Shown here one piece after another: positions 4,445 through 62,030 of a DNA stretch of 64,000 nt. The notes under the pieces were generated by a model that saw nothing but the letters and a program-made list of their open reading frames with translations, did no database searches and was not told where the DNA came from. How positions within the stretch are numbered: position 1 is the stretch's first letter; each line of letters starts with the position of its first letter. Position numbers and translations under genes: made by a program. The stretch is from contig AP026130.1 of assembly GCA_030295235.1 (NCBI GenBank), positions 62,001 through 126,000 of the forward strand. Direction: 5' to 3'. The DNA comes from Fistulifera solaris (taxonomy: Eukaryota).

Positions 4445-4726
4445 TGCTTGATTGCGTAATTCTTTTTTATGTCAAGTACAGACGATGATTCGACTGCCCG
4501 TGAAAGTTAGCGAGGTGAGATTTCTTCATTCTATTACCATCACTTTTCCTATACATTGTACGAACTGGGACTATCAACGATTAGTTCATTTGGGTAATTT
4601 GAAAGTAAAGGATTTCGTAATTAGTTTTTTTTGTACAAGTGGGATAAGCAAGATAAACGGGGCTCCTTTATTTAGATCAATACGTGAAGTGCAAACCTAG
4701 CTTTTCTAGACGACTTGGGAAAGAGT

Positions 4727-6060
4727 TTCTTTACGGAGGTCTACGTGTTTTCTACGCGTGGACAATACAAACGTTTCATTAGTGCTTCTTTTGGATGTTT
4801 TGCACGAAAAAGCACTCGCATATCGTTGTGTGATGCACAATAACAACGATGGAGAAGTCGAAAATGATGCCGTTGCCCAAAAACCCCAAAAAATGGAAGC
4901 AATCAAATTGTTCTATGTCCGGGTACCCCCTCTGTCGTTAAATTTCCTTACGGAGGTCTACGTGGTTTCTACGCGTGGACACTACAACCGTTTCATTAGT
5001 GCTCCTTTTGGATGTTTTGCACGAAAAAGCACTCGCATATTGTTGTGTGATGCGCAATAACAACGATGGAGAAGTCGAAAATGATGCCGTTGCCCAAAAA
5101 CCCCAAAAAATGGAAGCAATCAAATTGTTGTGTATCCGGGTACCCCCTCTGTCGTTAAATTTCCTTACGGAGGTCTACGTGTTTTCTACGCGTGGACAAT
5201 ACAAACGTTTCATTAGTGCTCCTTTGGGATGTTTTGCACGAAAAAGCACTCGCATATCGTTGTGTGATGCACAATAACAACGTTGGAGAAGTCGAAAATG
5301 ATGCCGTTGCCCAAAAACCCCAAAAAATGGAAGCAATCAAATTGTTGTATGTCCGGGTACCCCCTCTGTCGTTAAATTTCCTTACGGAGGTCTACGTGTT
5401 TTCTACGCGTGGACAATACAAACGTTTCATTAGTGCTTCTTTTGGATGTTTTGCACGAAAAAGCACTCGCATATCGTTGTGTGATGCACAATAACAACGA
5501 TGGAGAAGTCGAAAATGATGCCGTTGCCCAAAAACCCCAAAAAATGGAAGCAATCAAATTGTTCTATGTCCGGGTACCCCCTCTGTCGTTAAATTTCCTT
5601 ACGGAGGTCTACGTGTTTTCTACGCGTGGACACTACAACCGTTTCATTAGTGCTCCTTTGGGATGTTTTGCACGAAAAAGCACTCGCATATTGTTGTGTG
5701 ATGCGCAATAACAACGATGGAGAAGTCGAAAATGATGCCGTTGCCCAAATACCCAAAAAATGGAAGCAATCAAATTGTTGTGTATCCGGGTACCCCCTCT
5801 GTCGATAAATTTCTTTACGGAGCTCTACGTGGTTTCTACGCGTGGACACTACAACCGTTTCATTAGTGCTCCTTTGGGATGTTTTGCACGAAAAAGCACT
5901 CGCATATTGTTGTGTGATGCACAATAACAACGTTGGAGAAGTCGAAAATGATGCCGTTGCCCAAAAACCCCAAAAAATGGAAGCAATCAAATTGTTGTGT
6001 ATCCGGGTACCCCCTCTGTCGATAAATTTCTTTACGGAGCTCGACGTGGTTTCTACGCGT
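4727..6060. repeat. Tandem satellite, 217-bp monomer, about 6.1 copies
   Basis: Near-identical units; equivalent ORF starts at 4758, 4975, 5192, 5409, 5626 and 5842. Confidence 0.97.
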
Positions 6061-6657
6061 TGACATTGTAAGCGTTGCATCAATTCTCTTGTAGGATATT
6101 TTGGCTGAAACAGTCAATTGTCATGTTCAATCGACTTTTTCTGTAGGTCGAACTAATGATGATGACAGAAAATAATATAGAGGATACTTCTCATTATTTT
6201 TTTTTAATAAAAAAATTATTGACCTATTTTGACACGGGACCGATAGCAAACCTGAATGATTCTTCTTTGACATCATCCGAATACGTCCAACGTCCAACGT
6301 CCAACGCACAGTTGCTAAAAATTTATTTAGTCGAACATTTTTCTCAACGCATTTCTTTTGTACTGTTTTGTATCTACAACGTCTTGTCAGTGCGCCAAGG
6401 AGAGTGAATTGGCGCTGCTTCCATTTCACCCCAAAGTTTGCACCGCGCAGCCGTTGAGAGGCAAGAAAGGTGCCTCGATAATACACTCTAAGTGAAAGCA
6501 TTCCTTTGAATAGGTGCGCTGTGCGTCCTTTTTGACACAAACGAACGTGAGAGGTGCTTTGCCTCGAATCTTTCTTTCTGGGGTGGAAATAATAGAAAAG
6601 AAAGCTCTTTTTGTATTCGTTCTCAGCTCATTCACTTCATTTATCGTCAACACAACA

Positions 6658-9600
6658 ATGTTTCGTACACAGCAAATGCCTGCAATTCGCGTTTATCAGG
6701 AGGAAGAAGAGGAACCCTGGGATCAGCGGAAATCGACGCCGAAGCGATCCTTGTATGAAGAAGAAATCAATCAAATGGAGGACGGAGAATTACCATCTTT
6801 ATCGTCCTCGAAAAAGGCAACACCACAAAAAGGAGATTTAGAACAACGCAAGTTTTGGGGACAGCTGGACGTTAATTCATGTGATGATGATGAAGACGAC
6901 GAAGAAGATGCTGTGAGTCGAGATGAGTCGATTCGGCGTCGCGCTGACGAAGAGGACATGCCCGATGATGAACTCATGTCGTCGGCATCACGCAACAACC
7001 CCTCGAAACATCGAGCCCGGCATAATGCGCCGCGTCAAAGTGATGAACTTTATCAAGCCGACTCGTACGAAGCTCAAAAATCAAGTGCTGGCTTCGGGGT
7101 TTTGCGACACAACTTTGACGGCATTAGGTGATATGTGCGGCGCCTACACGGGTACTGCCAAACGCGTCACACTCAGTCCGCGAATTCATTCTGATGTGCA
7201 AGAAGAACATACGGCTATTGAAGTAGAGTTTGTTGAAGAAGAAACAGAACCCGCACGACACCATCCGGAGATGAGTGTTGCGTCTAAAAATGCGTACTTG
7301 TCAGCCATGGCGGCACAAGCGAAGGAGGAATTTCAAAGCAAGACAAAAAAAGGAGTTGATCAGTACGAGGATGGCATGGATGACCATACGCAAGGACGCT
7401 CGGTAAATACGAGCTTGGCCACCTCCCTGGATGATGCAGATGCATATGAAACCTTTAATGCGGCCGAGAAAAGGAAATTCATCCGTCTAATCAATACAGG
7501 AGCGAATCCACGAGAAGCGACTCAAATTATTTTACAAGAGCGCAGTACCTTAAAACCAGAGCCACCGCGAAAAGCGACGCTACCAACTCCGGAAAGCGCC
7601 CTGCCGAAACGATCTATGAGTGACGGAAAGCGGTCTCATCGATCGCACCGGTCCGCCGTATTGAATTGGAAAAGAGTAAATACACCCAGCAGCAACAGCG
7701 ATCTGTCAATGCCGAGCCAATTCGTCCCACTATTTCAGAAGACGATCACGACGACCTGAGTAGTCCGCTTCCTCCCTTGAAAGACAAGACTGCTGCCTTG
7801 ACAGATGATGACGGTGGTGGACCAATTGGTGGAGAGTTTTCCAAGAGTGGTATTAACTTTTATGACGCCGAACGAAAAGAGGACCAGGAAGATGAAATGG
7901 CGGTTGAACAGTCACCCAGCACTCCCACTTCGGTAAAAGGCTCTCGTAGCGAACAAATGCGAAAAGTCGGTTTCAAATCACTCGCGGTACGCAGGACCAA
8001 GAAATCTCCCAAGGCGACGTCCGCGATCACAAGCGACGACTTGCAGAGACCGGGGGAACTGTCTAGAAGCGAAACCGCAGCTCGCTATTCGCCCCAAATT
8101 GGCAATGATTCTATGGAAGACTATGAGAATATTCTGAACACTGCTGAAGAAGCTAGCTCGTTTAGCAAAAATGCTAGCTTTGACCCAGAGCTAACACTAG
8201 ATGATAACAACGCAGCAGAACTTCGATACACGGAGGAAAAGACCTCAGCTATTGGAGCAAACAACGACGAACGGAATGCAGCTCTCTATGCAAATGCCAG
8301 AAAACAGTACGCTGGGTTGAGTGTGCCAACGCCAGCTAGTGATGAGTCGGTATACACCGCGCAAACATCTGACACCGGATACACGGGAGTGACTGGAATG
8401 ACAGGGGCGACGACTTATACTCAGTCGTCCCGAGTTCGTCGACCCGGCGCGGCCAAGAAAAAGACTTGCTAGGGAAAAAGAGCTCCAAGAGAAAGCCAAA
8501 GGGACCCAAGGATGGGTGCAAAGTGTCAAGGAAGTGGCGGCTATGTCCAGCCAGAAATGGGATCCATTATTGGGTCTGGTAGATTACTTAGAACCCGTGG
8601 CAGAAGAAGTTCCGGAAAAGGCAAGGCATGAAAGCATACACTTGGATCTGAACACAAAGATTTCGACACCTTCGAAGCGTTCGAAGGTCGGTGATGCAGG
8701 CTCGATCAACACAGCGAAATCTGCCCCAGTCCCTTTCCGCGAGAATGGGAGGAAGAGCGCGAAAGGATGATTAGAGAAACAAAGAGTCTTGAAAAACATG
8801 ATTCATCCGCGACGTCATCACGAAATGGTATTCCGAGCAGCAATGATGGCTCGAGACCAAATAGCTGGATTGAATCCATGAAAGCGGCAAGCGCCACACT
8901 AGTCACAGATGGCAAGCAATGGGATCCCGACAAAGGTTGGATGAATGATGACGGCACCTCCGTTGCTATTTCAACTGATGGAGACTTTACTACTGCGTCG
9001 TCCTTACCGCCTCCGCCACCTTCCTCATTTACGACGGACCACGTGCCGAGGATCAGAAAGACCGACTCTCCGACCGTACACGATCGAATTGGTGCAAGCC
9101 CTATTGCTCAGCCAGAACGCTACATCCAACTAAATGACACGGGGTCTGTTCGTTCCGTGCGTCAAGACTATTCTCCGTATGCCGCTTCTACCAGCTTACC
9201 CGTTACTCAACCGATACCTCCAGTGTACGAGTCGACTTACGTATCGGATGACGAGACGGATGTTGACAGTGCCCCCTTATCCAATGGTGTAGAAGCGTAT
9301 TCCGCACAGGAAAAACCCGTAGCGACATCCGCCGCGAATGTCAACGTTGTGAAAGAGAAAATAAGCAATGATGACATCAAACTTTTTGCTAGTGGGAAAA
9401 ACAAAAACACCGGACATGCGGGCAGGACCGAGAGTTTGGGTAGCGAGGGACTTCCTGAACTGATCGCATCTAGTGATCAAGATAACGCGGAGGAATGGAA
9501 TCCAAACTCTGTTGAAGATGGCACTGGACCACGATCACAGGAACCTACTCAGCAACGTTCAGATGTCGATTTGGATATGGATGGAACCGATGGACTAGAC

Positions 9601-11190
9601 GACAAGCTATCAAAATTATCTAAACGCCGAGGCGGTGGCCCAGTCGATCTTGATGAACTGAGTGCAGGATCGGAAACAAAGTCGACGTTCTCTACAAATA
9701 CCGATGGGCGGTCCATCGCAAGCTTCAAACTTAAAAGTAACATTCGCGATACGTCACCAGTGGCGAAAAGACGACAAGCCGGGAAGGCACTGGTGACACC
9801 GTCTCCAGCGCAAGAAGCAAAAGACAGGACGAAAGTTGAGCGTGATGTTTTTCGCGACAAAAATGTTCAAGGAAAAGAGACCAGACGTATCCGAACCGTA
9901 CCGAGCCACGAATCTTTCGACCAAGAAAGGGTCGGTCATTACCATTCTGCATCCCATGGCGTAATGCGCGAAGATCCTTCGCCAAATTTGTCCCCGAAAA
10001 CCCGGAACACTGTTGCTGAGTGGGAATCGCGGGCAACCAAGACCGACGGTGCACCCTCAAGTCCAAGAAATAGTGCTGAATGGAAGGTTTTTCTTGCTAA
10101 GAAAGTTCGCGCTGAGAGAGACGCTTCGTCAGGAGCGGCTGAATCATTGAATATGCCTCGTCAACTCTTCAAATCATCCCCCGACGACGGAGATGGATAC
10201 GATGACGATTCAATTTTTGATTTCAAAAGCGCAGTCAATGCTCGTAGTGATGCCGATGAAAGCCGAAATCGCGTACATCAAACTGACAATCAGAATCAGC
10301 CGAGAGCTGACAAAGGAATGTCGCAGACAAATACCACCCCCATAAAATCTGACTCTGCACCATTGAAGGACATTTCCCATTTATCTCCAATCAATTCTCG
10401 AGACGAAGGCGATGCTGAGTACGATGACGGAAAATACCTACCTACGTCTAGAGTACATGGCATAGAGACTGCGAAGCGTGTCAATTTCTTCCAGCGTCTA
10501 GCAGAGTGCACGGGGCCGGTTTTATCGGAAAATAAAGGAATTCCATCTTCCCACCTCTCGTTTCTGCAGAATAATATCTGTGGTCGCCCAGGCGATGTAC
10601 ACGATGATACCGCCAGTGATGACGGTATATTGGATAAGGATATTGAGAATCTTGAGAAAGGCGTCGCAATGGATGATGTTGCTAACGTTTCTGTTAACGA
10701 TGGAAACGAAGATACCGACCTTCAGCATAGGGCGGACAACAAAATGGACATCAAACTGGCACGTGCTAAAGCAGGAGCCGGGTTCAGTAGTCGGCGCTCA
10801 TCGACTGGTAGCAGCGTAATATCAGAAGGAAGTTTTGGCGCCAAGACGGCTTATTTGGAAGCAATCGCGATGAAAGCAGCCGTGGCAAAACCAAGGAGTC
10901 GCAGCCGCGCTCGTTCCACTTCAAATTCAAGTGTGGTATCTGCTGCATCGTCCGTTCATTCCGAGAAATGGAAGGCGTTCTTGGAGAGAAAGAAAGCAGG
11001 AACAACACCCAGCGTGATCAGCAGAGCATCCGACGAGAGATACAAGGAGATGCTCGCTAGACTAAAATCTTCCCCACGACAGTTAGAAGCCGACGAAGTT
11101 TCTCAGTCTGCAAAAGACCTGTCTGGTGCCAAAGTAGAAGCATTAATGGCTCAATTGACGGGGTCCAATGTAAGTGAGGCGGAAATATAA
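6658..11190 (+). CDS. Large low-complexity hypothetical protein (one gene split by ~4 frameshifts)
   Basis: Consecutive ORFs 6514-7131, 6923-7759, 7666-8472, 8516-8770 and 8767-11190 share an S/D/E-rich composition. They switch frame at short homopolymers (~7095, ~7670, ~8458, ~8768). Confidence 0.65.
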
Positions 11191-11638: not shown

Positions 11639-11889
11639 GCTGGATCATAATCCGGCGTACAAGTGTCCTAGCTAGATATACGCCGGATCGTGCTCCGGAT
11701 ATTTCGTGAATTAGCAGTCCCGGATTCGAAAATCTGGCGCATAATCCGGCGTTCATCTTGCTCTGAGAGCTTCTACGCCGGATCATGCTCCGGTTTATCG
11801 TGAATCAGCAGTCCCGGACTTGGGATTTCCGGATCATGATCCGGCGTTCATCTAGCTCTGATAGCTTGTACGCCGGATCATGCTTCGGC
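11639..11889. repeat. Palindromic ~94-bp repeat cluster (ATCCGGCG...CGCCGGAT), MITE-like or subterminal repeat
   Basis: Three hairpin units. The first (atccggcgtacaag) is the inverse of the last (cttgtacgccggat). Confidence 0.6.
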
Positions 11890-12368
11890 TACAACGTGAC
11901 TTCCGGTAAAAGATAAGAAATTAACTAACTAACTTATCACGCAAATGATATCATTGCGTAGTCAAAGCTTTGGACTTTTGGGGGTCAAGGGTAACTAATT
12001 ATCTGCTAGAGTTCCTTCAGAAAACTAAAAGATGAGTTTGCGATGGTGCATGATGCAGTTGGTGTCAACGTATTCTCCCCTTGCACCCTTACATTCTCCT
12101 CCGACTTGTACAATTTTCTTCAGAAATTTTGTTGCATGGCTCCTTCAACGGAAATTTCCATGCAACGGCAGGCGCGGTACGACGGGTTGTGGACAGACTA
12201 GAGTACCGCTGGTGACCGACATGACATGGCCAGGGGGCTCCTGGTCAAGGGCCAAATGGCACGACTAAAACGAAACGAGTCCCGTACGTTAGGGAAGTGA
12301 GTCGTCGTCGTCGACAGAAATGCTAACCTTAGACACAATCACAACAGCAATCTTACAAATCAAACCTA

Positions 12369-18811: not shown

Positions 18812-19251
18812 TTCATGACTGAACAGCAGCCATGGCGAAAACGGACAACGCTTCGCGCCTATAGTGAATTTCGAACACAACAGTCTTCGAGGCTCTTCGA
18901 CATCTTGAATCAAAATGTGCGTTGCAAATGCTTCAGTAGGCTAATGATTTGCATTCACGACAGAAATAAATCAACAATCTTGCAATAGAAATGTAGCTTG
19001 ATCACTCGAAGGAATATCTAACCATGACTGAAATGCAGTCGTGAAAAAGTAACCTTCTCTTTGGGCTACAGTAAATACGAAAGATATCATTTCTCTAGCA
19101 TTGTTGAGCTTGAATCTCTGAAAAGTCTCCAATACAATTTCTAGATTGAAAGGTGATCAGAGTGACTCTAGAATTGCAGACGGAAGCTTCAACTGGGATG
19201 CAAAGGGACCAATCCAAAAATCGGTTGCTCATGACTGAATTCAGTCTTGAA
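18812..19251 (+). repeat. Dispersed ~0.45-kb element, copy 1 (three TCATGACTGAA hairpin motifs)
   Basis: Motif cores at 18814, 19023 and 19230. The first spacer aligns with the copies at 31.3 kb and 61.5-62.0 kb. Confidence 0.75.
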
Positions 19252-31312: not shown

Positions 31313-31766
31313 TTCATGACTGAAACGCAGTCATGGTGAAAAACTGAGTACACTTAGCACCTATAATAGACACTTGACACAGCGACCTCCGAGTCGTCTG
31401 TTCCATATCTTGATTAAAAAACGCATTGCAAATGTTGCGGTCGGCTATTGTTTTGTATTGAAGACAAAAGTACTTTCATGATCTTGTAAAGGGAACAAAG
31501 GTTGTAAGTCACAATGGTAGGTGTTCATGACTGAAAAGCAGTAATGGTGAAAAACGTCGTCTACGCTACTGGTCTATATTGGTAACTAATACCCCTTTAT
31601 CTTCCGTAAGGAATCGATTCACGGGGTAATAAATGCTACGGAGTATTTGAATTTATTTCTGTATCATTAAAAAGCTCGAAGCTTGTTCCATCGCGCAGGA
31701 TGGACGAAAGGCATGATTTTAGAGTGAGGATCCAAAATGTGATTCAGGACTGGAATTTAGTCGTGG
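31313..31766 (+). repeat. Dispersed ~0.45-kb element, copy 2
   Basis: Motif cores at 31315, 31526 and 31745. Spacers align with copy 3 (e.g. ggatggacg..aggca.tgatt). Confidence 0.75.
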
Positions 31767-36491: not shown

Positions 36492-36820
36492 ATGATGAAG
36501 TCCTTCGCGTTTCTTTTCCGGCAACAACGATTCTCGTGGCCATCGCTGGTAGCAGTCTGGCCGTGGCGAAGGAGGAACAGTCGTACCTATCGGCTCTCGG
36601 ACCGGATCGCGAGTTAGGACTTTATTTTCAGAACTGTGACACCTTTCTTTCTTGTGGAAGGAATGAAGGAGCATACCAAGTTTGCTACTACGGCATGACA
36701 CTCGACGCGGAGCCTCGGACACTGTGCTGGGTAAACACGCCCGCTCGTAACTTTGTGGCGAATACCCTCCGTCTGGTTCGTCGCCTCCGTTGTGGTGGCT
36801 GTGATAGTGTGAGTATTTAA
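36492..36820 (+). CDS. Small secreted Cys-rich protein (frameshifted near start)
   Basis: MMKSFAFLF joined to PATTILVAIAGSSLAVA across a T-run gives a signal peptide. The mature region has 6 Cys. Confidence 0.45.
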
Positions 36821-38004: not shown

Positions 38005-38159
38005 GCTTAGTTGATTCTAATAATGATTGCCGACAATATTGTGGCTTTTTTTTTGACGTGTTTGTTTTTGATTTTTATTGTTGCGTCGTTTCGTTTTGAA
38101 CCACTTTGACGGACTATTATGTGGAGTGTACAATGCCTTTCGTGACGGTTTCATTCACG

Positions 38160-38335
38160 ACTCCAGATAGTCTGGGGGACGTTGTTTTCACGTCTCCAGA
38201 TAATCTGGGGGTGAGGAGTTTTCAACTGTCCAGATAATCTTGGGGCGCGTTGTTTTACGTCTCCAGTTAATCTGGGGAAGCGACGTATTGACCTGTCCAG
38301 ATAATCTGGGCGTGCGGTTTTTTCACATCTGGGGT
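38160..38335. repeat. Array of five CCAGATAATCTGG palindromes at ~33-36-bp spacing
   Basis: Copies at ~38163, 38196, 38229, 38263 and 38296. Confidence 0.75.
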
Positions 38336-40304: not shown

Positions 40305-43300
40305 TTACTTTGATTTGGTGCCGTATTTCTTGTGCGCGGCTTCGACCATGCCAGCGACGACTTCCATGCCGCGCGATTCCCATTCCTGACGGTTCTTTTC
40401 CGCATAATTCAAATATTCATCGCTGGAAACCCCAAAGACACCGCACTCGCGCAACTTCTTCGCCAAGGGAATAATGTAAAAGTCAAAGAAGCCGATTTCT
40501 CCCTTATACCAGTTGTCTGATGGATCGGTGGCGGAGCGACCTTGAATGTAGGCGCTGTACAATTCTTCGAACAATCGTTCATTCCATTTGCGGTAAATGT
40601 GCCAGTGTTGCATTGTGTGCGAGACATCTGAGGCTTGAATCAAGTGCTCAATGACAATGGTTGCCTTGCGATCGACGGCGTCTTTCAGTGACTCTTCGAC
40701 GTTGTCCCCAGCAAAAGCCTTTTCCCAGCGTTTGTTGCGAAGGCACTTCAGGTCCTTGTCCATAATGTCAGTGGCCATGACCGAGTTGACCACCAGTTGA
40801 CGGAAACGCACGCGCTCATATTCTGTAGGACAGATCGCCAGTCGCAAGTCGTTGAAATTGTTGTCTTGGAGCAACTCCCACGATAAATCGACCGAGTTCT
40901 GTTCGGCAATACTCTTCTCGCGGTAGTATTTGGCGAGCTGAGGATTTTCAACAATCAACTGTGTGTTGGGGACACCGACGTGGTCGACATCATGAATCAA
41001 AGCCGAAAAGACACAGGCAAACTGCGTGAGCGGATCCGATGTAATACCGTACGTGTAATCGTGAAGAGTCGATTCCAAGTCGCTGTTTGTCGCGTCGACA
41101 TCGGGAGTTACAATTCGAGAAAGGAGCTTGACGACCGACATGGTCACATGTGACGCATGTTCAAAGTTGTGGAATGGGTTGTTACGATACATGGAAGCAA
41201 TCGCCGAAACGTATTCGCGGAGTTGATCCATGACGACCTTGCTGAGTTCTTCTTCTTTGCTTTCGTTGTTCTTGCATTTCTTGAAGACAGGCATGCGGAT
41301 GATCTCTTGTACTTCGTCCAAAGGCGTCGTTGCTATTTTGGAGAAACTCATATGGCGGATAGATTCCTGAGTGCTCAAGATATCCTTGCGACGCGCAATG
41401 ATGTTCTTCAGCAAGGACGCGAGAACTTCGACATTCCATTTAACAAGACGATCTGTTTTCTCATCCAAAACGGGGGCCATGGCGTCATGAGGTGCGCCAT
41501 CAATGTGGTTTTCATCGTATTCTCCAGACCCGTCGGTTTCGCTGGACGCGTTTTCACTTCGAGCTTGGTTCGATGCTTTGGTTGTGACGAGCCAGTATGT
41601 CTGCAGCTCGCCCTTTCCTTTGCGACAACAGTCTCTTCGCGCGGAGCCACCCAGTGTTCTTTGCCTGCCGCTATCAACAATCTGGCAGTTTCTTGAGACA
41701 TGTGAATCTTTCCAGGGAGTCCATTCGATTCCATTCTGCTGGCTGTGTTCATCGTGTCACCAAACAGCTGGAATCGAGAACGCTCGCCACGAAGAACACC
41801 GGCCGTCACCGGACCGCTGTGCAAGCCGACACGCATTTGCAGTTCGGTCGTATCAGGACCAAGAAGCACTTCTAGTTTGCGCGTCAATATATCCATCTTT
41901 TGAACGCAATCCAACGCAAAGCGACACATTGCCACTGCGTGGTCTTTTCGAGGATCTGGCAGCCCGGTCACAGCGACATAACAATCACCCACGGTCTCGA
42001 CCTTGAAAACGCGACGAGCCTTGGCGATATCGTCCATTGCCTTGTAAATGGTTTCCAACAAGATAAAGACTTGCGTTGGTTCTCGCATGGAACTCCAGGC
42101 AGTGAAACCTGACAAAAAAGAAAGCAAACAGCAGCAATGGAAGGTTAAATAAAGGAATACTGTAAGACCTGTAGCTCGCTCGTATCACTTCGCTTTCGCA
42201 TTTGGTACCTACCTGCCAGATCTAAGGTTTGATATGACATCAAAAGATGAAACAAGGAGTTAAAGATGCGCATGATGGACAACGACTCGCTCTTCGCAAG
42301 CTCTTCAGTATTTTTAGTGCTTACCTGCGAAGAGAACTGTGGTTTCTGGAAAAAGATCAGCAATAGGCTTGGTCTTGTACATGTACTGGTCGTTTTCATC
42401 ACCGCCACCAGCCGCTTCGTTGTCTTCGTCATTTCCAGTTGATAGATACGATTTCAAACGACTTTTTCCGTTGAGCGCCTTCTTTTCGTCGCTTTCATCT
42501 TTGGCTTGGGCAAAGATGCGGTCGCGCACGTTGGAAGGAAAAAGGGATGATACAATTCGCGTTGGTTTGGGTCATTGCAACTAGCATTTTACGATTTCGT
42601 CGACCGACAAAGCGGTCAAACATAAGAAAAGCCGTTATCATGAACGCAAAGGCAAACACAAGCATTGTCGTTGCTTGGACAGGATTCGATGAGTGGTACC
42701 GTTCTGCAAACGCTGCGGTTGGATACACGTGAAGGTAAAGAGACAGTGACCTTCGACAGATGCAAACTCCTCTTCGGTCAAACCATCTTCGAGTTCAAAA
42801 AGGGGATGATCTCTTCCATGTGATTGTAATGGGTATCATGCAGATCACCCGGACCTATATATGTGACCTGAAGCAGAGTGGTGCGTCAGTGCAATTTTTC
42901 ATCCTATGCAGGCCACACTTCTATTGATAGCAACTTACCGATGTTCCTTGTAGAGTGTATGTGAACGACTGATTGCAGCTGTTCTTTAGAACCGCAATAA
43001 TGTCGGAAGCTCCTTCGGGTAGTAGATTCACCATGTTTGAATCCCAAAAAAATATGCTGTATACTTTCCCGGCAATCTTTGCAGTGTCTAGGTCTAACAA
43101 GCTGTCAAACACGGGATGGCCAATGGCACAGACTGGGGGGAAATTTTCAGTTCCGGGCAGTGGTTCAAGTACTTCCGACATGACGGCCCGTCGGAATGTT
43201 TCAATTGCATTATTACTCGTGTTCGCCCCATATCCATAGCTATCAAAGTTGATCTCATAAGTGGAACGCACTGGAGGAGAGGCTTGCCAACGTGGACCCC

Positions 43301-44036
43301 ATGGCCCTTCACTTGTGGGGAGAAATGGCAATGGACTTTTGATTGAATAATCGGTACTTGAATGGTTGAACCATTCTTCCGTGAAATTGTGGCCGGGTTC
43401 AGCGAGGAAGAGTGCGATCGAGTCGTTGTACCAACCGATGTTTTCAGTTGCGTACGCATTGAATGCGTCACGCTGTTCCACCCTCAACCGTTGGACTCCA
43501 AACAACCTCAAGGATACCTGACATCTCCCTGGCTTGCCCGCCGATGACTTCGAATAAGTCAACCGTGACGAATGGGAAGGTTTCATTTTTTTCGACGGCG
43601 GCTTTCGTGACCTGTCCTGCAACCAGTGCGCCCGCATTGAAAACATCATGAACTTGAGATTCAACAGCGTTTCGGATTGCTGCGACAAAGAATTCGTACT
43701 GCCAGACAATTTGTTGGTTACAAAGCGACGACAAAACTTAACAGTGGGGGCGAAAGTGAAAAACGCCTTACTTACGCTGTCTTCAAATTCGTCAATGTCC
43801 TGGGCTTGTAGGAGGCGAAAAGTGATCGTCGACACTGCTACAGACACTGCAACAAGGATTAGGAGGGTGAAAATTCGCCACATTTGGACACCCCTCGTCT
43901 CACGACGGGTCAGCTCCGCGATTGCTTCTTCTTCGGCTTTTTCCTGGTCGTTTGTGTCCATGCCAGAGGATTGAAGATCATCGTCGGATGATTCACCGCC
44001 GTCAACGCTCCATGAATGATCACTGTCTTCGATCAT
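40305..44036 (-). CDS. Membrane adenylate/guanylate cyclase fused to an HD-type phosphodiesterase domain (multi-exon, frameshifted)
   Basis: TM - extracellular region - TM; cyclase motifs (FPETTVLFA, FKVETVGDCYVAVTG, GLHSGPVTAGV, FGDTMNTASRMES); PDE motifs (FHNFEHASHV, HDVDH, QASDVSH). Introns near 43.7, 42.9 and 42.1-42.3 kb. Confidence 0.9.
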
Positions 44037-44297
44037 TGTCGATGTTCTTGTTATTCGTATTTGTTGCCCTGTTGCAAATCAATTTTGCTCGAAAATGAGC
44101 ACAATTTTGTGGTTGGACCAAGTCGCTTGTGCCCTGGCCTCATCGTGACCGGGTTTGGCTGCGGACGAGTGCGGATTTGTTTGGGCTTTTTGATGACTGT
44201 CATAATTCGCCATAATTCTGGCTTATATCGGCTACAAATTATGTAGAAGAATATGTAGAAGACAGTGATATTCCGGAAAAGTCGGGATGAGGCCGAA

Positions 44298-45808
44298 TTC
44301 TGAGTTCTGAGAGCTGGATCTGAGATCTGAGAGACAGTTCACAGTTCTTGAAGTCGCAAGTCGCAAGGTTTACTCCTACTCCGTATTGTTTATTGTTTAT
44401 TGTCAAATGGTCCATGCCACGTTTGGGTATTTCGTTTACAGTTACCCGTTACAAATTACGGAGTACAGCATTGCAGCTTACAGCTTAGAGCTGACGTGTA
44501 CATAGTTCCTCCGAAATCTGGAGTAATTTACTGTACAGAATCCTAACCGGCCGATCGACAATCGACAAGCGGTGATGAGTGATAAGTGATGAGTGATGAG
44601 CTCATCAGTGATGAGTGATGAGTAATGAGTAATGACTCTCTTTGGGCCTTGGGCCATTGATAGGGTGGAGGGTGGCATTGGCCCTCGAGCTGCGACTGTC
44701 CGCGAGACTCATAGTTTTTTTTATTAAAAGTGAATACCTGGTAGCTGGTAGTGACGCGCGTAACTCGTAACGGACATGAAAAGGGAAGCTTGAAGCTTCG
44801 TGCGTAGCGCGTTAGCGCTTAGCTTGCCCTCGAAGCTCGAAGCATGAACCTATTATTTTTAAAAATAAAGAGTAAATAATAAAGAATGAGGAAACGTGGC
44901 ACGTGCTGGGAGTTTTTTGTCTTCTTGTCTTGCGGCGAAAAGGCGAAGTCGAAACAAAAAAGCATTAAGTAAGACGTAAGACTGACTCAGGATTACTAAA
45001 AGGTCTTTTGGCAATTTCCATGAAACTACTCTGACCTCTGACTGTGGGCCGTGAACCGTGAACCGTGAACAGACAACAGACGGGCAATGCGGAGAGTGCG
45101 GAGTGCGGAGAAGTCCGATTGATTGATTGACAATCTTTGAAACTTGTAATCTGAGCTGGGAGCTGGGAGTTTTTAGTCGCTATTCGCCAGATTCCCGATC
45201 TCACCTTATCACCTATCAGTAGGGTTCCGGCCGGGTTGAACCCTTCCAGGCCCGACCCCTATCTGGACGGGTCGGATGGGTTTAGCGGAAGGGTTCGTCT
45301 CCAGAAACCTTCCTCGGACGGGTATTCATAACCTATTGATTTAGTGTTTCTCTGAGTGCCACGTGGATTTAGATGATGTTCTAGACGGCGCTACAAGCGT
45401 GAATTTAATGATAAATAGCATTGGAGTACCAAATCATCACTTATTTATTATAGGTTGATGACTTGGGATGACAGCATTGTGAAAAAGTTGCCTGAAACTG
45501 GCAAAATAAATTAAACATCGATGGAATTGTCATATTCTTGGGCATCGCAATATTTAGTCATGAAAAACGAGAGGCTTTATCTTTCCGCTATATGGTATAA
45601 ATTAACGTTGATTTCTCATTGAAAATCGAGTGTTTGAGGGCCGTCCACAAAATTTTCGCCAGCCCGCCGGAAGTCGGACTGAACCCTTCCGGCGGATGGG
45701 TCCGGAAGGGTCGAAGAGGGCCTTCGGCCCCTTCCAGTGGACGGGTCCAAAAGTCGAACCCGGCCGGAACCCTACCTATCAGCCGTAAGCCGTAACTATC
45801 ACCTATCA
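44298..45808. repeat. Tract of about 20 different 7-bp tandem duplications
   Basis: For example ttctgag x2, acagttc x2, aagtcgc x2, cagctta x2, gtgatga xn, ttgggcc x2, ccgtgaa x3, gccgtaa x2. Confidence 0.85.
45220..45774. mobile_element. hAT-type MITE, 555 bp
   Basis: Perfect 18-bp TIR TAGGGTTCCGGCCGGGTT, 8-bp TSD CCTATCAG (45212-45219 and 45775-45782), and subterminal ACCCTTCC/GGACGGGT repeats. Confidence 0.93.
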
Positions 45809-46459
45809 AAAGGCTGTTATTGAAAAATGAGTTAAGAGTATAAGGAAGACGTTGCACAATAGACATCAGACTAGTCGATTTTCCAATTGACAGCATAAAT
45901 TTCCTTTATTTCGAAAATCTAACATCGTCGTTTCTCTTTTATTGGCGTCGTGCTATTCGCGGTTGATAGAACTTAGACCGATTTGGCCTTTTGCCTTTCA
46001 TCATTTCCCTTTCCCTTCCGGCTTGCATGGACTATGAACCGGGAATGATGAACGATGAACGACCAGGCAAAGATTTATGGTACGCCTGCTTTTTAGTCTC
46101 TAGTCTTTCCAGCGTTTTCAGAACATTGTGTCGTTTATCGCTTTCTTCTTTTTCAAGATCTGATCTGTTAGAATTGTGCAACTATTCTTGACGTGATTCG
46201 AGCCGTTTCTAAACCAAGGGGAAATTCCCAACACTCGTCACTCGTTCTTTCTTTCGTGAAAGACGCGCCCGACGGGACTGAAGACATAAATGACGCAGCG
46301 GTAAAGAATAATATGGCGGCATAATAGCGCACATCGCGCAAAACCGAAACGCAACGACAGCATCAAAAAAAATGCGATGTGCTTCATTGTTCTTTTCCCT
46401 GAAAAGATCTTCTTTTGCCATTATTCCTCATTTGTTTATTTCAATAAAAGATTGAACCT

Positions 46460-47602
46460 ATGACAGCGATTTCGGACTCGCAAAAGTTTGACCGCGAACG
46501 TCAAATTGCCTACTTTTCGGCCTGCTTACGAGAATTGCCGGCGCCGTACTGCAAATTGGACACCAATCGACTGACCATGGTGCATTTTTGTGTACACGCG
46601 CTAGATTTACTCGGTGTTTGGGATGAGATGAGAGAAAAGGGCAACACGTATCCGTCGTTTGTCAAGGCAAACGACGTTGTCGAGTGGATATTGTCGTCAC
46701 TTTTGCACACCGACAACAACAATCCGCCAGACGCCGGCTTCATCGGCGGAACATTTCTTCCCCCGCAACACAAATATCATCACAGTCACATTGCCATGAC
46801 TTATACGGCTTTATGTATCTTACAAACACTGGGTGTGAACGTTCGCGACGATCCCCGGATTCCCCAAACTGCTATCCTTCGTACCTTGCGACGATTGCAA
46901 CAACCCGATGGGAGTTTTGCTTCCACTCTTCAAGGAGATGGTGAACACGATTTGCGCTTTTTATACTGTGCCTGTTGTATTTCTTATTTGCTGGACGACT
47001 GGAGTGGTATCGACATACGCCGCGCCGTTGCGTACGTTCGAAATTGTCGATCGTTCGACGGTGCATTGGCGTTAGTTCCGCACGGCGGAGAAGGACACGG
47101 CGGATCGACGTTTTGTGGTGTCGCCAGTTTAGTCTTGATGAACCAGTTGCATGTGATTGTGGAAGATGCAGACTGGAAGGCGAGTTTGCTGTATTGGTGT
47201 GTCACACGACAACAGAAACAGGGACTACAAGGTCGTCCGAACAAGGATGAAGATACATGCTATTCGTACTGGATTGGTGCTACCTTGAGACTGTTGGGAC
47301 ATGATGCTGGTACCGGTAACGAAGACGATGTGCTATGCTTTTTGGATCATGCCGAGCTGCGGTCCTTTGTTTTGTCGTGTCAGCATCCTCTGTTGGGAGG
47401 ATTCTCTAAAGTACGAAATACCCATCCGGACGTTTTGCATTCGTATTATAGTTTGGCGTATTTGAGCTTATCACAAAAGTACCGACAAGATACACAAATT
47501 GAAAACGATTTAGAGGGCGTGTCTTTGAAGGCATTGAATTGTACTATGGGAATCGGTCAAGCAAGTATTTCGGCAGATCAGGGATTTCTACCTCTCCCTT
47601 GA
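46460..47602 (+). CDS. PGGT1B: Geranylgeranyltransferase type I beta subunit
   Basis: LDTNRLT, HIAMTYTAL, EHDLRFLYCA, EGHGGSTFC, GRPNKDEDTCYSYW and PDVLHSY. Confidence 0.88.
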   Translation: MTAISDSQKFDRERQIAYFSACLRELPAPYCKLDTNRLTMVHFCVHALDLLGVWDEMREKGNTYPSFVKANDVVEWILSSLLHTDNNNPPDAGFIGGTFLPPQHKYHHSHIAMTYTALCILQTLGVNVRDDPRIPQTAILRTLRRLQQPDGSFASTLQGDGEHDLRFLYCACCISYLLDDWSGIDIRRAVAYVRNCRSFDGALALVPHGGEGHGGSTFCGVASLVLMNQLHVIVEDADWKASLLYWCVTRQQKQGLQGRPNKDEDTCYSYWIGATLRLLGHDAGTGNEDDVLCFLDHAELRSFVLSCQHPLLGGFSKVRNTHPDVLHSYYSLAYLSLSQKYRQDTQIENDLEGVSLKALNCTMGIGQASISADQGFLPLP

Positions 47603-48687: not shown

Positions 48688-49165
48688 GAGAGAGTAGATA
48701 GATTGTTGAAACTTTTTCCTTCTACACAATCTTGTTCGAAGGAAATGCATGTTATGTACAAGTATGTTGGGTTGGCGGCCATTGTCATTATTATTTCGTG
48801 GTACTATGTGCGAGCACAATCCTTCAGCATTTCTGTCTGGGCACGGCGTTAAATTATCCCAGAAAGGGACTTGCGCGCACGCCGGTAACTTTAGTGTCGT
48901 AAATCTCTACATCCCGGACAGGCGAGATAGCCGTTGCTTTATGTATAAAACTGGATCAGACCCGCGATACTAAATTTGAGTACAGTGAAAACCGTTCAGA
49001 CTCGTCCGATGTCTCAACGGCTCTGTTGTAGATTATCTGGTCGCTAAAAGCCGCAACCTGTTTTCTTGCAAGCAGATTGCACACTAACTTACAAACAGCA
49101 ACACAAGAAACTTCTATGTGCACAATACCCTGGTAATGTGCAATGCATGTGCTACAAGAAATCTT

Positions 49166-49790
49166 CCAGCAAGTTATCGCGGACTCGCGATAAATATCCC
49201 GAGCTCGCGATAATTATCGCGGATATTTATCGCCTATCCGGGATATTTATCCCCGGCACGCGATATTTCTTTTGAATTCCAAATTCCATTTCTGCCCTAT
49301 TGCCTCGAAAATGAAATTCAGCGCACAGAACGCATTAGAGTTTTGCGAATAGCCTAGAAAAAACGAAGACACGCTTGCAACTTGCAACTGCAACCGATCA
49401 AGCACTTTCAAATATCGACCACTCTTGTTCTTGTCACTTGTCGTTCATCTGAAAAAGCTCCTACTCGCTCCAAGAAAAGTCACCAGCAACAATCTTACGC
49501 GCCTCAGTCACTCGGCATTAGATATACTTCTTGCGCACAGCCATGACAAGGTGATGCTCGTGTTGCAGTTGTTGTTAATAAACCTTACGAAGTACGCAGT
49601 CGTTTGATAACCTTACTGCAGAACGTTTAAGGTTGCGAGGGCCTTGATTGGCGATGGAATTTCATGCAGCGCCAGACGGAATCTTACTTATCATCTCCGG
49701 GCGATAATTATCGTGGATAATTATCGCGTATCCGCGATAAATATCCCCGATCCGGGATAATTATCGCCGGTTGAGATAATTAAACGCTGC
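49166..49790. mobile_element. Degenerate MITE-like element with GATA(A/T)(A/T)TATC subterminal arrays at both ends
   Basis: Clusters of gcgataattatcgc / gataaatatccc at 49170-49257 and 49688-49782. Imperfect CAGC...GCTG ends; no TSD seen. Confidence 0.5.
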
Positions 49791-50727
49791 TGCCGAGAAA
49801 CATCGCTTGAAAGACAATCATATTTTTCAGTTACGTCAATGTGATCTACTCCTAAATCCTGAAAATCGCTAAAACACCCAAAATTGAAGCTCTTTAGGCC
49901 ATTTCTACTGAGTACTATTTATCAGAGATATGTATAAGTCTTTTCTTCCTTGATGTTTCCATTCAGTCGATTCGGATCGTATCGGTTACCAAGAGCTACA
50001 GACTGTTGATAGTGTTTTCCCCATTGCTGTTCGCCACATATAGACGTACTGTTGAAAGGTCAGTCCGATGACGGTGAATGACGGATAATCGTCTTCGCGA
50101 TAATTTAACGCCGTGCCCTGTATCAAAATAAATACTATGGTGGATAGTGTAGACTCACTTATCCACGACTGCACTTCAGTCATGAATCCATTTTCTTTCG
50201 AGCTTATTATCGAGCGACAATGCTGCCTACAATTGTTTGTCAAAAAAGTTCTTGAGCTTCATTTGTTGCTATTGCAATGAGATAGGCTTAAGCAGCGTTG
50301 TTCCAGTCAATCTCATCGAAATGAAGCGGACCCGCAGTACTGTAACTTTTAAAACGGAACATTCTCTCCTTCTTGCTCAGTCACGCGAAATGCCTTTACT
50401 GTAACAGTTTTTTGAAAGCAGATGATCAGAGTGAATCAGAGAAATTAACACTTCCGAAAGTCTTTCAAGATTAAAGTTGCTTTTTCTTAGGTCGGTTTAA
50501 TTTTGGAAGCGTTAACGCTTAACATCACACTCGAAGATGGAGTAGACACGAGAAAACTGGTTGTTGAAACTGTTTCATTCTACAGCTAACAAGCTTGTTC
50601 GAATTCAATGCAAAGCGCCTGCGCATGAAAAGCAAAGGGTAATAAAGAAAAACGACCAAAGCAAAAGTAAAAAGGCAGGTCCACTCAGGAACTGCGGAAT
50701 CAATTAGATTAATTCATTCCTTCTTTG

Positions 50728-53236
50728 CTACAATTTTGCGGAGAGCAGGCGCAACCCCTCGAAACCAAAGTACATTCCCTTGAAGAGATGATATTTCTGT
50801 CGATGTTTGATTGCTTCTGCTAATGCTTCCTCGTATCCAAGCTTTTCAATGGAGAAATGCGTCTGATCTTCTGTCGATGCAGTTGACCCGTAAGGTGTAT
50901 AAACACGAACCGATGCCACCCAAAAAGCCCACTTTTTCTTGTCATGACTGCGCTTACGATACACGCCAACAATCGAACCATCCTCGCGTTTTCCTTCGTG
51001 GTTAATCTTCCGATTGTTTGCCTGGAAGAGCTTATGTCGCGGAAGAAGATTACCAATTTTGTTGTTCGATCGGTTGTGATCTTTATGATCGCATGTTTCT
51101 TTCTCCGTCAACGGACGACCGATAAAGCATCCTGCGAGAAACCGACTGAAATCAACTGTTTTCTTCCCGGCCGCATACGGAATGCTGATCCTATACTTCA
51201 CGAAACCATTCTTGTATTCCTTCTTCTGGATATCGATATGCTTCCCAGTGCGCGTGTTGATGACATGCGTCCCATCTCCGCTCGCAAAGATAAAGTCACA
51301 TTCGGGGTCTTTGTAGTAGTCGCATTTGAGAAGTTTATAATGGTCTTCATCGATATCAAGATTGGACAGCTCGTAGTTCTTATGCGGGGCGCTTGAAGTG
51401 TTAGAAAAAGAAACAACTTGTCGTTAGTTTCATTTGTCTCTTTCCTGTTCAAGATAGCCAGCAAAACTTACTTTTGATCTTGATCGATATTCTCCTTTTG
51501 ACTATTCTCAGAGCGAGGTATCCAGCGTAGGAAATAAATGCTATTGTTGGACCGCGCACCAATGTGATCACCGACGTAGCCCTGTGGGCGTTTCCCTTCA
51601 AATGTAATCAAGCTCATGTGGTGAACGAAGAATTTCTTGCTGGTTTTGTTGCACGCAGCACTGTAGAGAGTTGCCCGGAGATACCCTTCAAGGTCAGGCT
51701 GGGCGCTGAGAATGGTATACGATCTGGTGAATAATCGAGAACCTTCACGCTTGCCTAACAGCTCCATCATTCCTGCTGCAATGTCCGCCTTGTTCCGCAT
51801 GCCATGCTCCCCGACTCCCTGCGACCAACCGACTCTGCAACACACAATGAAGCCGTCTTCGTGCATGTAGTAAACTCGGGGATGAAAGTAATGAACATTC
51901 CCATCCTTGTATCTCTTCACCGCAACTAGCACATGTCCATTCACATCAACTTCGTAATAAATGTCTCCATTCTTCTCGGGAATTACTTCGGGATTCTCCA
52001 CAAAGTCCGTGTTGGTCCCTAGCAGAAACTTCTTGCTCTTTTCTTCGTCTTCGTCATCGGCATTTTCTTTCTTCGGTTTGGCCTTGGTAGGTTTTAGAAT
52101 GGCGGGCTTCGTTTCGCCTTTTGAACGTCCAGGATCGATGCCGTATTCGTCATCTGTGTCGTAATCCGGTGCATCCTGTGTGCGTTCGGCAGACTTATCA
52201 CATCCGTTCAGATAGAAGAGATCAGGGGGAATCTTTTTCAACTTGCCAGCTCGCAACCAGGTATTTACAAACTTTGCCGGAAGATCGGATTCCACTGATA
52301 GTATCTGATTGCTGTACACGTTTTCGAAAATTGCCATTTCCTCGTCAGTCGCATATTTAGGGACATACTCGGTTCGCCATCCTCGACGGACAACAGAAGA
52401 ATCTTTCGGAATTGTATCACTCGAAACTGGAGAGAAAACTTTCCCAGTTTTGATGCTTTTCTTCCGCCATTGTCCCTTTTCTTTCTTCCGACTATTCCGC
52501 TTTCGCTTCCGACTTTCCACACCGGAGGCCTTGGGACTGTATGCTTTGTCCTCCGACGTGACAGCGGAGGACTTCGGACTGTATTCTATGTCCTCCGACT
52601 TGAGTTTGCCCCTGGTACTTTCGACGGTACGTTTGACAGTGCATTCGACGGTGCTGTCATCAAGGAAAGTCAGGTCAACCACGTCGCTTTTTTCGAAATC
52701 GGTCAAGAAACTGTCGCAAATCTCGACATTATCATCGCCGGTAGAGTCGCCAACAATGCTGTCATCGTCTAAAGTCATATCAACCGCGTTGTCGCTAGAA
52801 GATCCAACAGGACTGGTGGCGTTATGATCTGAGTCACCAGCAGCGTAGCTTTCTCCAGCGGAGATTACCTCATCGGCGACAGGAGCTTTCGAAGCCAAAT
52901 CCTTGTGTAAGCCAAACGATAGAACTGTTTGGACGAACTTCTTTCGAGGCGAAGGCTTAGAGCTCGGAGGTAAAACGGCAAAATTCTGGCGCAATTGAGC
53001 TACGCCTAGCTTTATTGACGACGCGTTGCACTCCTCTGGACTGATTTTGAGCAGCTTGTTCGACGTCGAAACGGCGGGTAAATCACCAGAGGGTTGATTT
53101 TTGCATGAGCATTCTTTTTCCGAGACATTGCCTTTCCAAAGCTCTTCATCATTTCAAGCACGCGCTCCGTACGGGAGGCATTCGACCTTGACGAGCTGTC
53201 GGAGTCGGAGCAGTTTTCGAATTCGTTGAGGTCCAT
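50728..53236 (-). CDS. Protein with two HNH endonuclease motifs and a C-terminal AP2-like domain (2 exons)
   Basis: HNH1 VGDHIGARSNNS..LRWIPRSEN; HNH2 CDHKDHNRSNNKIGNL...NNR; AP2 GVYRK...WVASVR...FSIEKLGYEEALAEAIKHR. An 80-bp intron (51471-51392, GTAAGT..AAG) joins in frame. One frameshift at ~53155. Confidence 0.75.
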
Positions 53237-61539: not shown

Positions 61540-62030
61540 CCTTTACCACGACTAACAAGCTTCAGTCATGAATCGAATATATATCCTTCTCAGAATCATT
61601 GCCTACCGTCCATCCGGCGTGCTCGGGAAAGAATGCAGCTTCTTACGGTGAAACCTAAAATACAGCAGCATTTTTAAGCCATGAATCTATTTTTTACGAT
61701 TAAATGAGGGCGTCCTACTATTGATATATAACCTAGAGTGTAGAGTACCTTTTTCGCCACGACTGCTTTTCAGTCATGAATCAATACGCTTGCGACTTAT
61801 CATCTTCGTTCATTTTGCAAGCTAAATGAATATTTTTAGTCTTTATTGCAGTGCGATAGCCAACCGCAATAATCGCAAAATATATTTTAATTCAAGACGT
61901 CGAACAGCCTCAGAGACTGCAGTATCATGGATTTACTATAGGCGCAATAAAATCTTGTCCGCTTTTCGCCACGACTGCTTTTCAGTCATGAATCCATATC
62001 CTTGTGACTTCTTATCTTCGTTCATTTTGT
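61540..62030 (-). repeat. Dispersed ~0.45-kb element, copy 3 (reverse orientation)
   Basis: ttttcgccacgactgcttttcagtcatgaa at ~61751 and ~61963, with a variant ending at 61572. Confidence 0.75.

Follow-up and report, generated by a model that had tools for sequence, protein, structure and literature searches.

The stretch of Fistulifera solaris DNA analysed here, 64,000 nucleotides of contig AP026130.1 (assembly GCA_030295235.1, forward strand, positions 62,001 to 126,000; referred to below as the window and numbered from its first base), contains a dense field of doubled heptamers inside a 2.4-kb spacer that separates two divergent genes. In the 874 bases from position 44298 to 45171, unrelated heptamers form 21 exact period-7 tandem duplication tracts, which take up 321 bases. 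The duplications are specific in length, independent of microhomology, clustered, and young, and they are absent from the interior of a miniature inverted-repeat transposable element (MITE) that resides in the same spacer. We propose, at a probability of roughly 0.4, that the field represents a burst of at least 22 independent insert-free scars resembling target-site duplications (TSDs), which would have arisen from breaks of fixed stagger that were filled in and rejoined.

Inventory and length specificity of the doubled heptamers

The 21 tracts of the main field, all with an exact period of 7, start at positions 44298, 44317, 44334, 44351, 44384, 44474, 44554, 44585, 44607, 44618, 44642, 44662, 44738, 44785, 44829, 44969, 45029, 45049, 45068, 45094, and 45153. 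Most consist of two copies, the longer ones being TATTGTT (2.9 copies), CCGTGAA (3.1 copies), and a GTGATGA/GTAATGA array of ~9 copies; in the whole window, the copy number is below three in 32 of 37 period-7 tracts. To the right of the MITE, and adjoining it, two copies of AGCCGTA (exact) are followed by CTATCAC/CTATCAA (six of seven positions alike; 45781 to 45809), and upstream of the right-hand gene, GATGAAC (2.3 copies at 46047) and CACTCGT (two copies at 46232) form two more exact period-7 tracts within 46047 to 46245. The left edge of the field (44201 to 44262) holds CATAATTC repeated at offset 10 and 1.9 copies of TATGTAGAAGAA at period 12. Tandem Repeats Finder provided independent confirmation, with 15 period-7 rows between 44299 and 46062. 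Sixteen of the 21 heptamers listed in the initial annotation of this region proved to be exact 7 + 7 tandem pairs in place. Three others are exact as well but lie 1 nucleotide (nt) out of phase or within an array that had been listed as such (GTAAGAC at 44969, GAGTGCG at 45094, and the GTGATGA pairs at 44585 and 44607), and two are alike in only six of seven positions (CGTAACT/CGTAACG at 44759 and CTATCAC/CTATCAA at 45796). The list was also incomplete, lacking the two copies of AACAGAC at 45068 and, beyond its range, the tracts at 46047 and 46232.

Exact primitive tandem duplications were counted in the whole window and compared with those in first-order Markov shuffles. Period 7 occurred 37 times versus 3.8 times in the shuffles and period 6 occurred 36 times versus 13.6 times, whereas there was no enrichment of period 5 (56 versus 52.4), period 8 (1 versus 1.4), or period 9 (0 versus 0). 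Altogether, 22 of the 37 period-7 events fall in positions 44200 to 45900, where periods 5, 6, and 8 are represented by 1, 1, and 0 exact duplications. When one mismatch was allowed, the window contained 108 period-7 clusters (55 in shuffles), 27 of them inside the field. In the spacer without the MITE (1,704 bp), 6-mers recurred 30 times at offset 7, five times at offset 8, and once each at offsets 6 and 9, compared with 0.2 to 0.3 times per offset (offsets 6 to 9) in shuffles of the same sequence. Of the 36 six-mer repeats in the near range (offsets 6, 7, and 8), 30, or ~83%, thus lie at exactly offset 7. Compared across periods 5 to 9, on the window and the spacer only, the spectrum therefore has its spike at 7, and the constant period with changing sequence described in the initial annotation is real. 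The background rate in DNA outside open reading frames (ORFs) predicts 0.95 events in 1.7 kb, and 22 were seen (Poisson P, ~1e-22); the period-7 share also differs between the field and the rest of the window (Fisher p = 3e-6).

Outside the field, the window has 19.6 kb of non-ORF DNA, which contains 65, 13, 11, 11, and 1 duplications of periods 4 to 8, respectively, versus 64, 16, 4.2, 0.4, and 0.4 in shuffles; relative to the shuffles, period 7 is the mode there too. For comparison, we used 48 metagenome loci (240 kb, of which 53.7 kb is non-ORF DNA) that encode relatives of the protein flanking the field on the right (best identity, 53%). Their non-ORF DNA has 253, 107, 41, 21, and 3 duplications of periods 4 to 8 versus 172, 47, 11, 3.6, and 0.2 in shuffles, a spectrum that falls smoothly without a spike at 7, and the period-7 share among periods 5 to 8 is higher in the window background than in the 48 loci (Fisher p = 0.0099). 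A cluster of unrelated doubled heptamers was found in none of the 48 loci; the clusters that occur there (in L013, L033, and L012) are arrays of one unit.

The field was compared with contigs from X1 and X2, two public runs from different studies, the latter a wetland metagenome. These are Logan contigs, i.e., assembled sequences and not raw reads, and they contain 88 to 90% of the sampled words of positions 42500 to 47500. One X1 contig spans 41978 to 44948 with 0 substitutions and one X2 contig spans 43663 to 45248 with 2 substitutions (at 44186 and 44442), and the length of each equals its span. No heptamer copy was gained or lost between the window and these contigs over the spans covered, and the doubled heptamers are fixed in both sampled strains. 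Since the contigs of two independent runs reproduce the field base for base, apart from the substitutions given, and without net length change, an assembly or polishing artefact of the long-read assembly has a negligible chance of being the explanation. What speaks for such an artefact is that the window lacks a single A or T that X1 and X2 both have at positions 36513, 41618, 45648, 46148, 47848, and 47965; this suggests long-read homopolymer errors, which do not affect the field. Deletions of this kind could make false frameshifts in window genes.

Two other properties of the field were considered. By eye only, we saw nothing convincing in palindromes, GAA/TTC content, or the 10-bp spacing of the first four sites. 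The possibility that the field is a gene riddled with 7-bp insertions was rejected, as no long ORF is recovered when every doubled heptamer is reduced to a single copy (the longest grows from 125 to 138 amino acids [aa]).

Origin of the doubled heptamers and the resident MITE

When random window heptamers were duplicated in silico, runs of 7, 8, and 9 matching bases resulted in 56, 27, and 10% of cases, respectively. The corresponding numbers of tracts are 17, 8, and 4, against 20.8, 10.0, and 3.9 expected, and the duplications therefore do not require microhomology. Neighbouring tracts overlap twice (44607/44618 and 45049/45068), with ~4 overlapping pairs expected, and the placement of the tracts within the ~0.9-kb zone looks roughly random. 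The duplications are young because 22 tracts are still exact and only 5 more clusters carry one mismatch, which corresponds to ~0.015 substitutions per site. If the duplications are scars, their density of ~0.029 per bp would put the local rate of scar formation, by our estimate, at about twice that of point substitution.

What was found thus includes both properties expected of insert-free TSD scars, namely, a fixed length whatever the sequence and no flanking microhomology. Fixed length without microhomology is a hallmark of TSDs, and we therefore read the scars as TSD-like; the fixed duplication length likewise points to an enzyme with a fixed geometry. From these properties, we infer both the staggered-break chemistry and the enzyme class. 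The DNA would have been broken with a fixed 7-nt stagger, the single-stranded overhangs would have been filled in, and the ends would have been rejoined, turning one heptamer into two. The cutting enzyme could be a DDE transposase or a similar nuclease, and in each event, an element could have been inserted and later cleanly lost, or the DNA could have been cut with nothing inserted. The hits would have fallen nearly at random over the ~0.9-kb zone in the divergent-gene spacer, in a fairly recent burst (~1.5% sequence divergence ago) that came before the resident MITE or did not touch it. The initial annotation had named a length-specific staggered-nick repair process as an alternative, and, with the fixed length and no need for microhomology, this is essentially the explanation that we favour. 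A broader proposal, that the diatom lineage has or recently had an undescribed length-specific mutational process, is doubtful; in it, a transposase or transposon-derived nuclease would repeatedly break a delimited zone near promoters with a 7-nt stagger and leave TSDs devoid of any insert.

Several observations weigh against the fixed-stagger explanation. Runs of at least 10 matching bases, i.e., tracts with a partial or full third copy, number 8 where 2.3 are expected, and in four of these eight tracts the extension is 3 nt, which is compatible with a contribution of microhomology or slippage. Duplications of periods 10, 12, and 27 are also present in the spacer. No element or enzyme with a 7-nt stagger was found within the 64 kb: transposase families were absent from the 50 window ORFs scanned, and none of the 18 terminal inverted repeat (TIR) pairs listed in the window scan has a 7-bp TSD. 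We know of no eukaryotic superfamily that leaves uniform, perfect scars of two TSD copies. In the X1 and X2 contigs, we saw neither a polymorphism between single and double heptamers nor an allele with an element between two heptamer copies, in a comparison that has little power for copy number, the two strains differing by just 2 substitutions in 1.6 kb. Finally, a genome-wide process specific to this organism is only weakly shown, because the period-7 density in the window background (0.56 per kb of non-ORF DNA) is hardly above the 0.39 per kb of the 48 loci, which come from other diatoms and protists; the field itself is therefore the outstanding feature.

The resident MITE is a 555-bp noncoding element at positions 45220 to 45774. 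It is bounded by perfect TIRs of 18 to 19 nt (TAGGGTTCCGGCCGGGTT) that start with TAGGG, has subterminal repeats at both ends (five copies of CGGAWGGGT and two of TGGACGGGTC), and is flanked by a direct repeat, an 8-bp TSD with the sequence CCTATCAG at 45212 to 45219 (left copy) and 45775 to 45782 (right copy). The boundary is ambiguous by 1 nt: a 19-nt TIR leaves a 6-bp TSD, and counting the last A gives a 9-nt direct repeat. TIRs of hAT elements begin with YARNG and are accompanied by short subterminal repeats, and the TIR start and subterminal repeats of the MITE agree with this rule. On structural grounds (8-bp TSD, TIRs, and subterminal repeats), we class it as hAT-like. A TIR and TSD scan of the window found no other convincing element. 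No second copy of the MITE was found in the window or in the 48 metagenome loci. X2 contigs break ~30 nt inside each MITE end, where the X1 depth approximately doubles, which hints at further copies in the genome. The TIR 18-mer had no matches in viral contigs, and six single matches in prokaryote metagenome-assembled genomes were dismissed as chance (~17 expected in 596 Gb on both strands). The interior of the MITE contains no exact period-7 event, whereas 7.1 to 10.7 are expected from the density in the flanks (P ≤ 8e-4); either the MITE arrived after the duplication burst or it was not a target. The 12-mer TATCACCTATCA is found on either side of the MITE insertion site (45207 to 45218 and 45797 to 45808), and its copies are 27 bp apart after removal of the MITE; the MITE target therefore lay in a partial tandem duplication of 27 bp that is older than the insertion.

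The presence of this element bears on the explanation put forward in the initial annotation, in which the scars are hAT excision footprints, left either by local hopping of the MITE or by many copies and consisting of two 8-bp TSD copies minus one junction base (15 bp, period 7). We consider it unlikely. Its arithmetic is sound, since ABCDEFG + ABCDEFGH and ABCDEFGH + BCDEFGH are both exact period-7 pairs. As reportedly found by Zhou et al. in 2004, the hAT nick falls 1 nt into the flank. The hAT transposases leave hairpinned flanks (PMC5499845), with the base next to the element at the apex of the hairpin (PMC5873905), and we infer a route in which both hairpins would be opened at the apex and two 1-nt 5' overhangs ligated over each other, always yielding 15 bp. 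In Candida, 53 of 128 Ds excisions left one of two predominant footprints, which differ from each other by one fusion-site base (PMC5873905). However, the same study describes 28 footprint types in the 128 excisions (PMC5873905), all with either a short deletion or a palindromic insertion whose centre is the complement of the flanking base, and TcBuster left footprints with inserted complementary bases as well as deletions as large as 50 bp (PMC3499496). The footprints of Ac/Ds, TcBuster, and Hermes are short scars in gene-proximal DNA built from two TSD copies, a structure with which the field would be compatible only if exactly one junction base were lost every time. They are heterogeneous and contain P-nucleotides, whereas the field has one dominant product length, the original junction base, and period 7 instead of 8. 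The uniformity of the field, with no exact period-8 pair and one period-6 pair, contrasts with this published diversity.

The individual junctions also fit hAT excision poorly. Repeats at offset 8 are mildly enriched (5 versus 0.3), and one of them, TTGTCTTc TTGTCTTg at 44917 to 44932, is a textbook hAT footprint, 8 + 8 with the junction base swapped for its complement, although it is a single case. Three of the four offset-8 events do not fit, just the one at 44917 fits fully, and the fifth is a period-4 repeat. At offset 7, the centre base is the complement of a flanking base in none of the five imperfect events. The target-site preference of Hermes/Ac-type hAT elements is nTnnnnAn, and 1 of the 11 unique-phase field events agrees with this consensus (~1.5 expected); in the whole window, 5 of 17 do so (2.4 expected; p = 0.076). 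A series of ~25 consecutive hops of one MITE within 2 kb would be implausible, and period-7 pairs occur in spacers without a TIR element as well (11 in 19.6 kb). On the other hand, the sole clear TIR element of the window, with its 8-bp TSD, sits inside the sole field, and the lack of scars in its interior is also in line with hAT excision. We estimate the probability of such a co-location by chance at ~8% (1.7 of 21.3 kb of non-ORF DNA), which is suggestive, but it is a single case. Thus, the 8 + 8 − 1 footprint retains its arithmetic but not the expected heterogeneity, flanking-base complements at the junctions, or target consensus, and the field indeed shares its spacer with a MITE that has an 8-bp TSD, in an association that rests on one element in one window.

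Equally improbable, in our view, is that the doubled heptamers are heptanucleotide proto-microsatellites born by replication slippage or template switching in a duplication-prone spacer. Short-period duplications of all periods are enriched in the noncoding DNA of related contigs (periods 4 to 8 in the 48 loci), 3 to 9 copies are reached at 44384, at 45049, and in the GTGATGA array, and the excess of long runs (8 versus 2.3) as well as the duplications of periods 10, 12, and 27 in the same spacer would be natural products of slippage. Prokaryotes also have an excess of heptamer repeats, for which there is no explanation. Slippage, however, would not single out a period of 7, yet period 7 in the field is at >100 times chance, with periods 5, 6, and 8 approximately at chance. 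Flanking microhomology is zero in 17 of the 37 events, as if the process were microhomology independent, and most tracts end at two copies (32 of 37 have fewer than three). The window, X1, and X2 do not differ in copy number, an observation of low power with 2 substitutions in 1.6 kb, and the 48 loci contain one-unit arrays without any cluster of unrelated doubled heptamers in 240 kb. With periods 5, 6, and 8 near chance in the field and microhomology not needed, the earlier judgement that ordinary slippage explains the field poorly is borne out. Selection of the doubled heptamers as cis-regulatory direct repeats of a bidirectional promoter is very improbable. It would suit the position of the field between two divergently oriented genes, and a doubled or arrayed heptamer lies ~30 to 250 bp upstream of the orthologous geranylgeranyl transferase gene in L001 (9891), L011 (123), L013 (2346), L016 (2313), L021 (711), L024 (369), and L033 (2784 to 2806), contigs from distantly related diatoms or protists. 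The heptamers have no common motif, though, and selection would not force an exact 7-nt head-to-tail spacing on ~20 different words; their near-perfect identity points to young events and not to conservation.

Flanking genes and other features of the window

The window is gene-dense eukaryotic DNA with long ORFs (PPR, cyclase/phosphodiesterase, ZIP, DUF819, GMC oxidoreductase, cyclophilin, and others), in which no Rfam families or tRNAs were found. On the left, the field is flanked by the 5' part of a minus-strand gene (42921 to 44036), an ORF without a Pfam match whose first in-frame ATG is at 44036; farther downstream on the minus strand, there are ORFs with guanylate cyclase and phosphodiesterase domains. 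On the right, the plus-strand gene for the geranylgeranyl transferase type-1 beta subunit (46460 to 47602; Pfam PF00432, E = 9e-93) starts with an ATG that is residue 5 of the ORF. Its best named relative is the protein of Fistulifera solaris, a raphid diatom (88% identity), and the further named matches are also from diatoms (47 to 51% identity). As the spacer is bordered by the minus-strand ATG at 44036 and the plus-strand ATG at 46460, it is a divergent promoter region.

Dispersed repeats were few in a self-BLAST of the window. A 20-nt palindromic motif, GACTGCNNTTCAGTCATGAA (stem CATGACTG/CAGTCATG), occurs seven times, versus 0 in shuffles, on the minus strand at 18812 to 18831, 19021 to 19040, 31313 to 31332, and 31524 to 31543 and on the plus strand at 50167 to 50186, 61761 to 61780, and 61973 to 61992. 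The sites include three pairs ~211 bp apart, located within a unit of ~250 bp that is 70 to 75% alike between loci. At 50157 to 50203, the read depth is ~10 times that of the neighbouring sequence, and many contigs diverge on both sides. The unit looks like a high-copy element or a shared promoter/terminator module. Palindromic repeats resembling GATAATTATCGC form two clusters (49170 to 49260 and 49695 to 49775) that bracket ~430 bp containing two exact period-7 pairs (49275 and 49374) and two near-exact ones. The read contigs have several alternative joints at these clusters (48859 to 49720 and 49739 to 49215), and the stretch is perhaps a structural variant, or else an element of the foldback or MITE-like type.

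Tandem repeats with longer units include a 217-bp unit in 6.2 copies (96% matches; 4726 to 6065), a short way upstream of a long gene on the plus strand that is broken up into several ORFs (6514 to 11190), and a 95-nt unit in 2.3 copies with internal palindromes (11679 to 11899). At 38154 to 38330, a 34/67-nt unit is present in 5.3/2.2 copies, and both read sets contain a variant with an 81-bp skip and 14 other letters. In addition, one X2 contig joins 52136 to 53204 with 4 other letters and thereby omits 1,067 bp (52137 to 53203) of an ORF of 561 aa that has no Pfam match; another X2 contig covers this stretch. Neither a TIR nor a TSD was found at the ends of the skip.

Relation to known systems and significance

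Fill-in duplications of other lengths are familiar from Cas9 (1 nt) and topoisomerase II (4 nt); we know of no nuclease that makes 7-nt staggered cuts in many different sequences within a stretch of 1 kb. Breaks with protruding ends give rise to small tandem duplications after gap filling and end joining (PMC11685606). Such duplications are as long as the overhang and do not depend on microhomology, features that the explanation proposed for the field shares. The "perfect excision" footprints of rice, which consist of exactly two TSD copies, are likewise exact fixed-length tandem duplications of arbitrary sequence without element remnants (PMC4423477). They are a recognised but rare class, described as 8 of 94 footprints and scattered (PMC4423477), whereas the field contains 21 such duplications within 874 bp, in a genome from which no 7-bp-TSD element is known. 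Prokaryotic heptanucleotide repeats (STRR and similar) share the period and the intergenic location but are multicopy arrays of one unit family, in contrast to the ~20 unrelated units, each doubled, in this eukaryote. On excision, P elements leave terminal fragments behind, and the targets of Dada are small-RNA genes. TSDs of 7 bp are made by Galileo, of the P superfamily, and by Dada (PMC2775673, PMC8869645), which thus have the same duplication length, but no such element or transposase was found in the window.

Literature searches returned no account of such fields of 7-bp duplications, whether in diatoms or in other organisms, and the text of the Fistulifera solaris assembly preprint, as far as it was covered by the search (its supplements were outside it), makes no mention of them. 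Tentatively, and at somewhat less than even odds, we regard the field as transposon or target-site-type scars in an arrangement for which no published description was found.

If the doubled heptamers were instead products of slippage, they would parallel, in a eukaryote, the unexplained bias towards heptamers in bacterial repeats. If the fixed-stagger explanation is true, the scars would be the clean natural imprint of an enzyme whose cuts always have a stagger of 7 bases, and the spacer would be a mutational hotspot in which one class of small insertions outpaces point substitutions. The question would then be which diatom enzyme and repair route yield uniform insert-free footprints. Diatom genomics would gain a new marker for the former activity of mobile elements or nucleases, along with a source of rapid change in promoters. 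Under the broader proposal of a lineage-wide process, such fields would also make it possible to read where transposases or nucleases have acted on chromatin.

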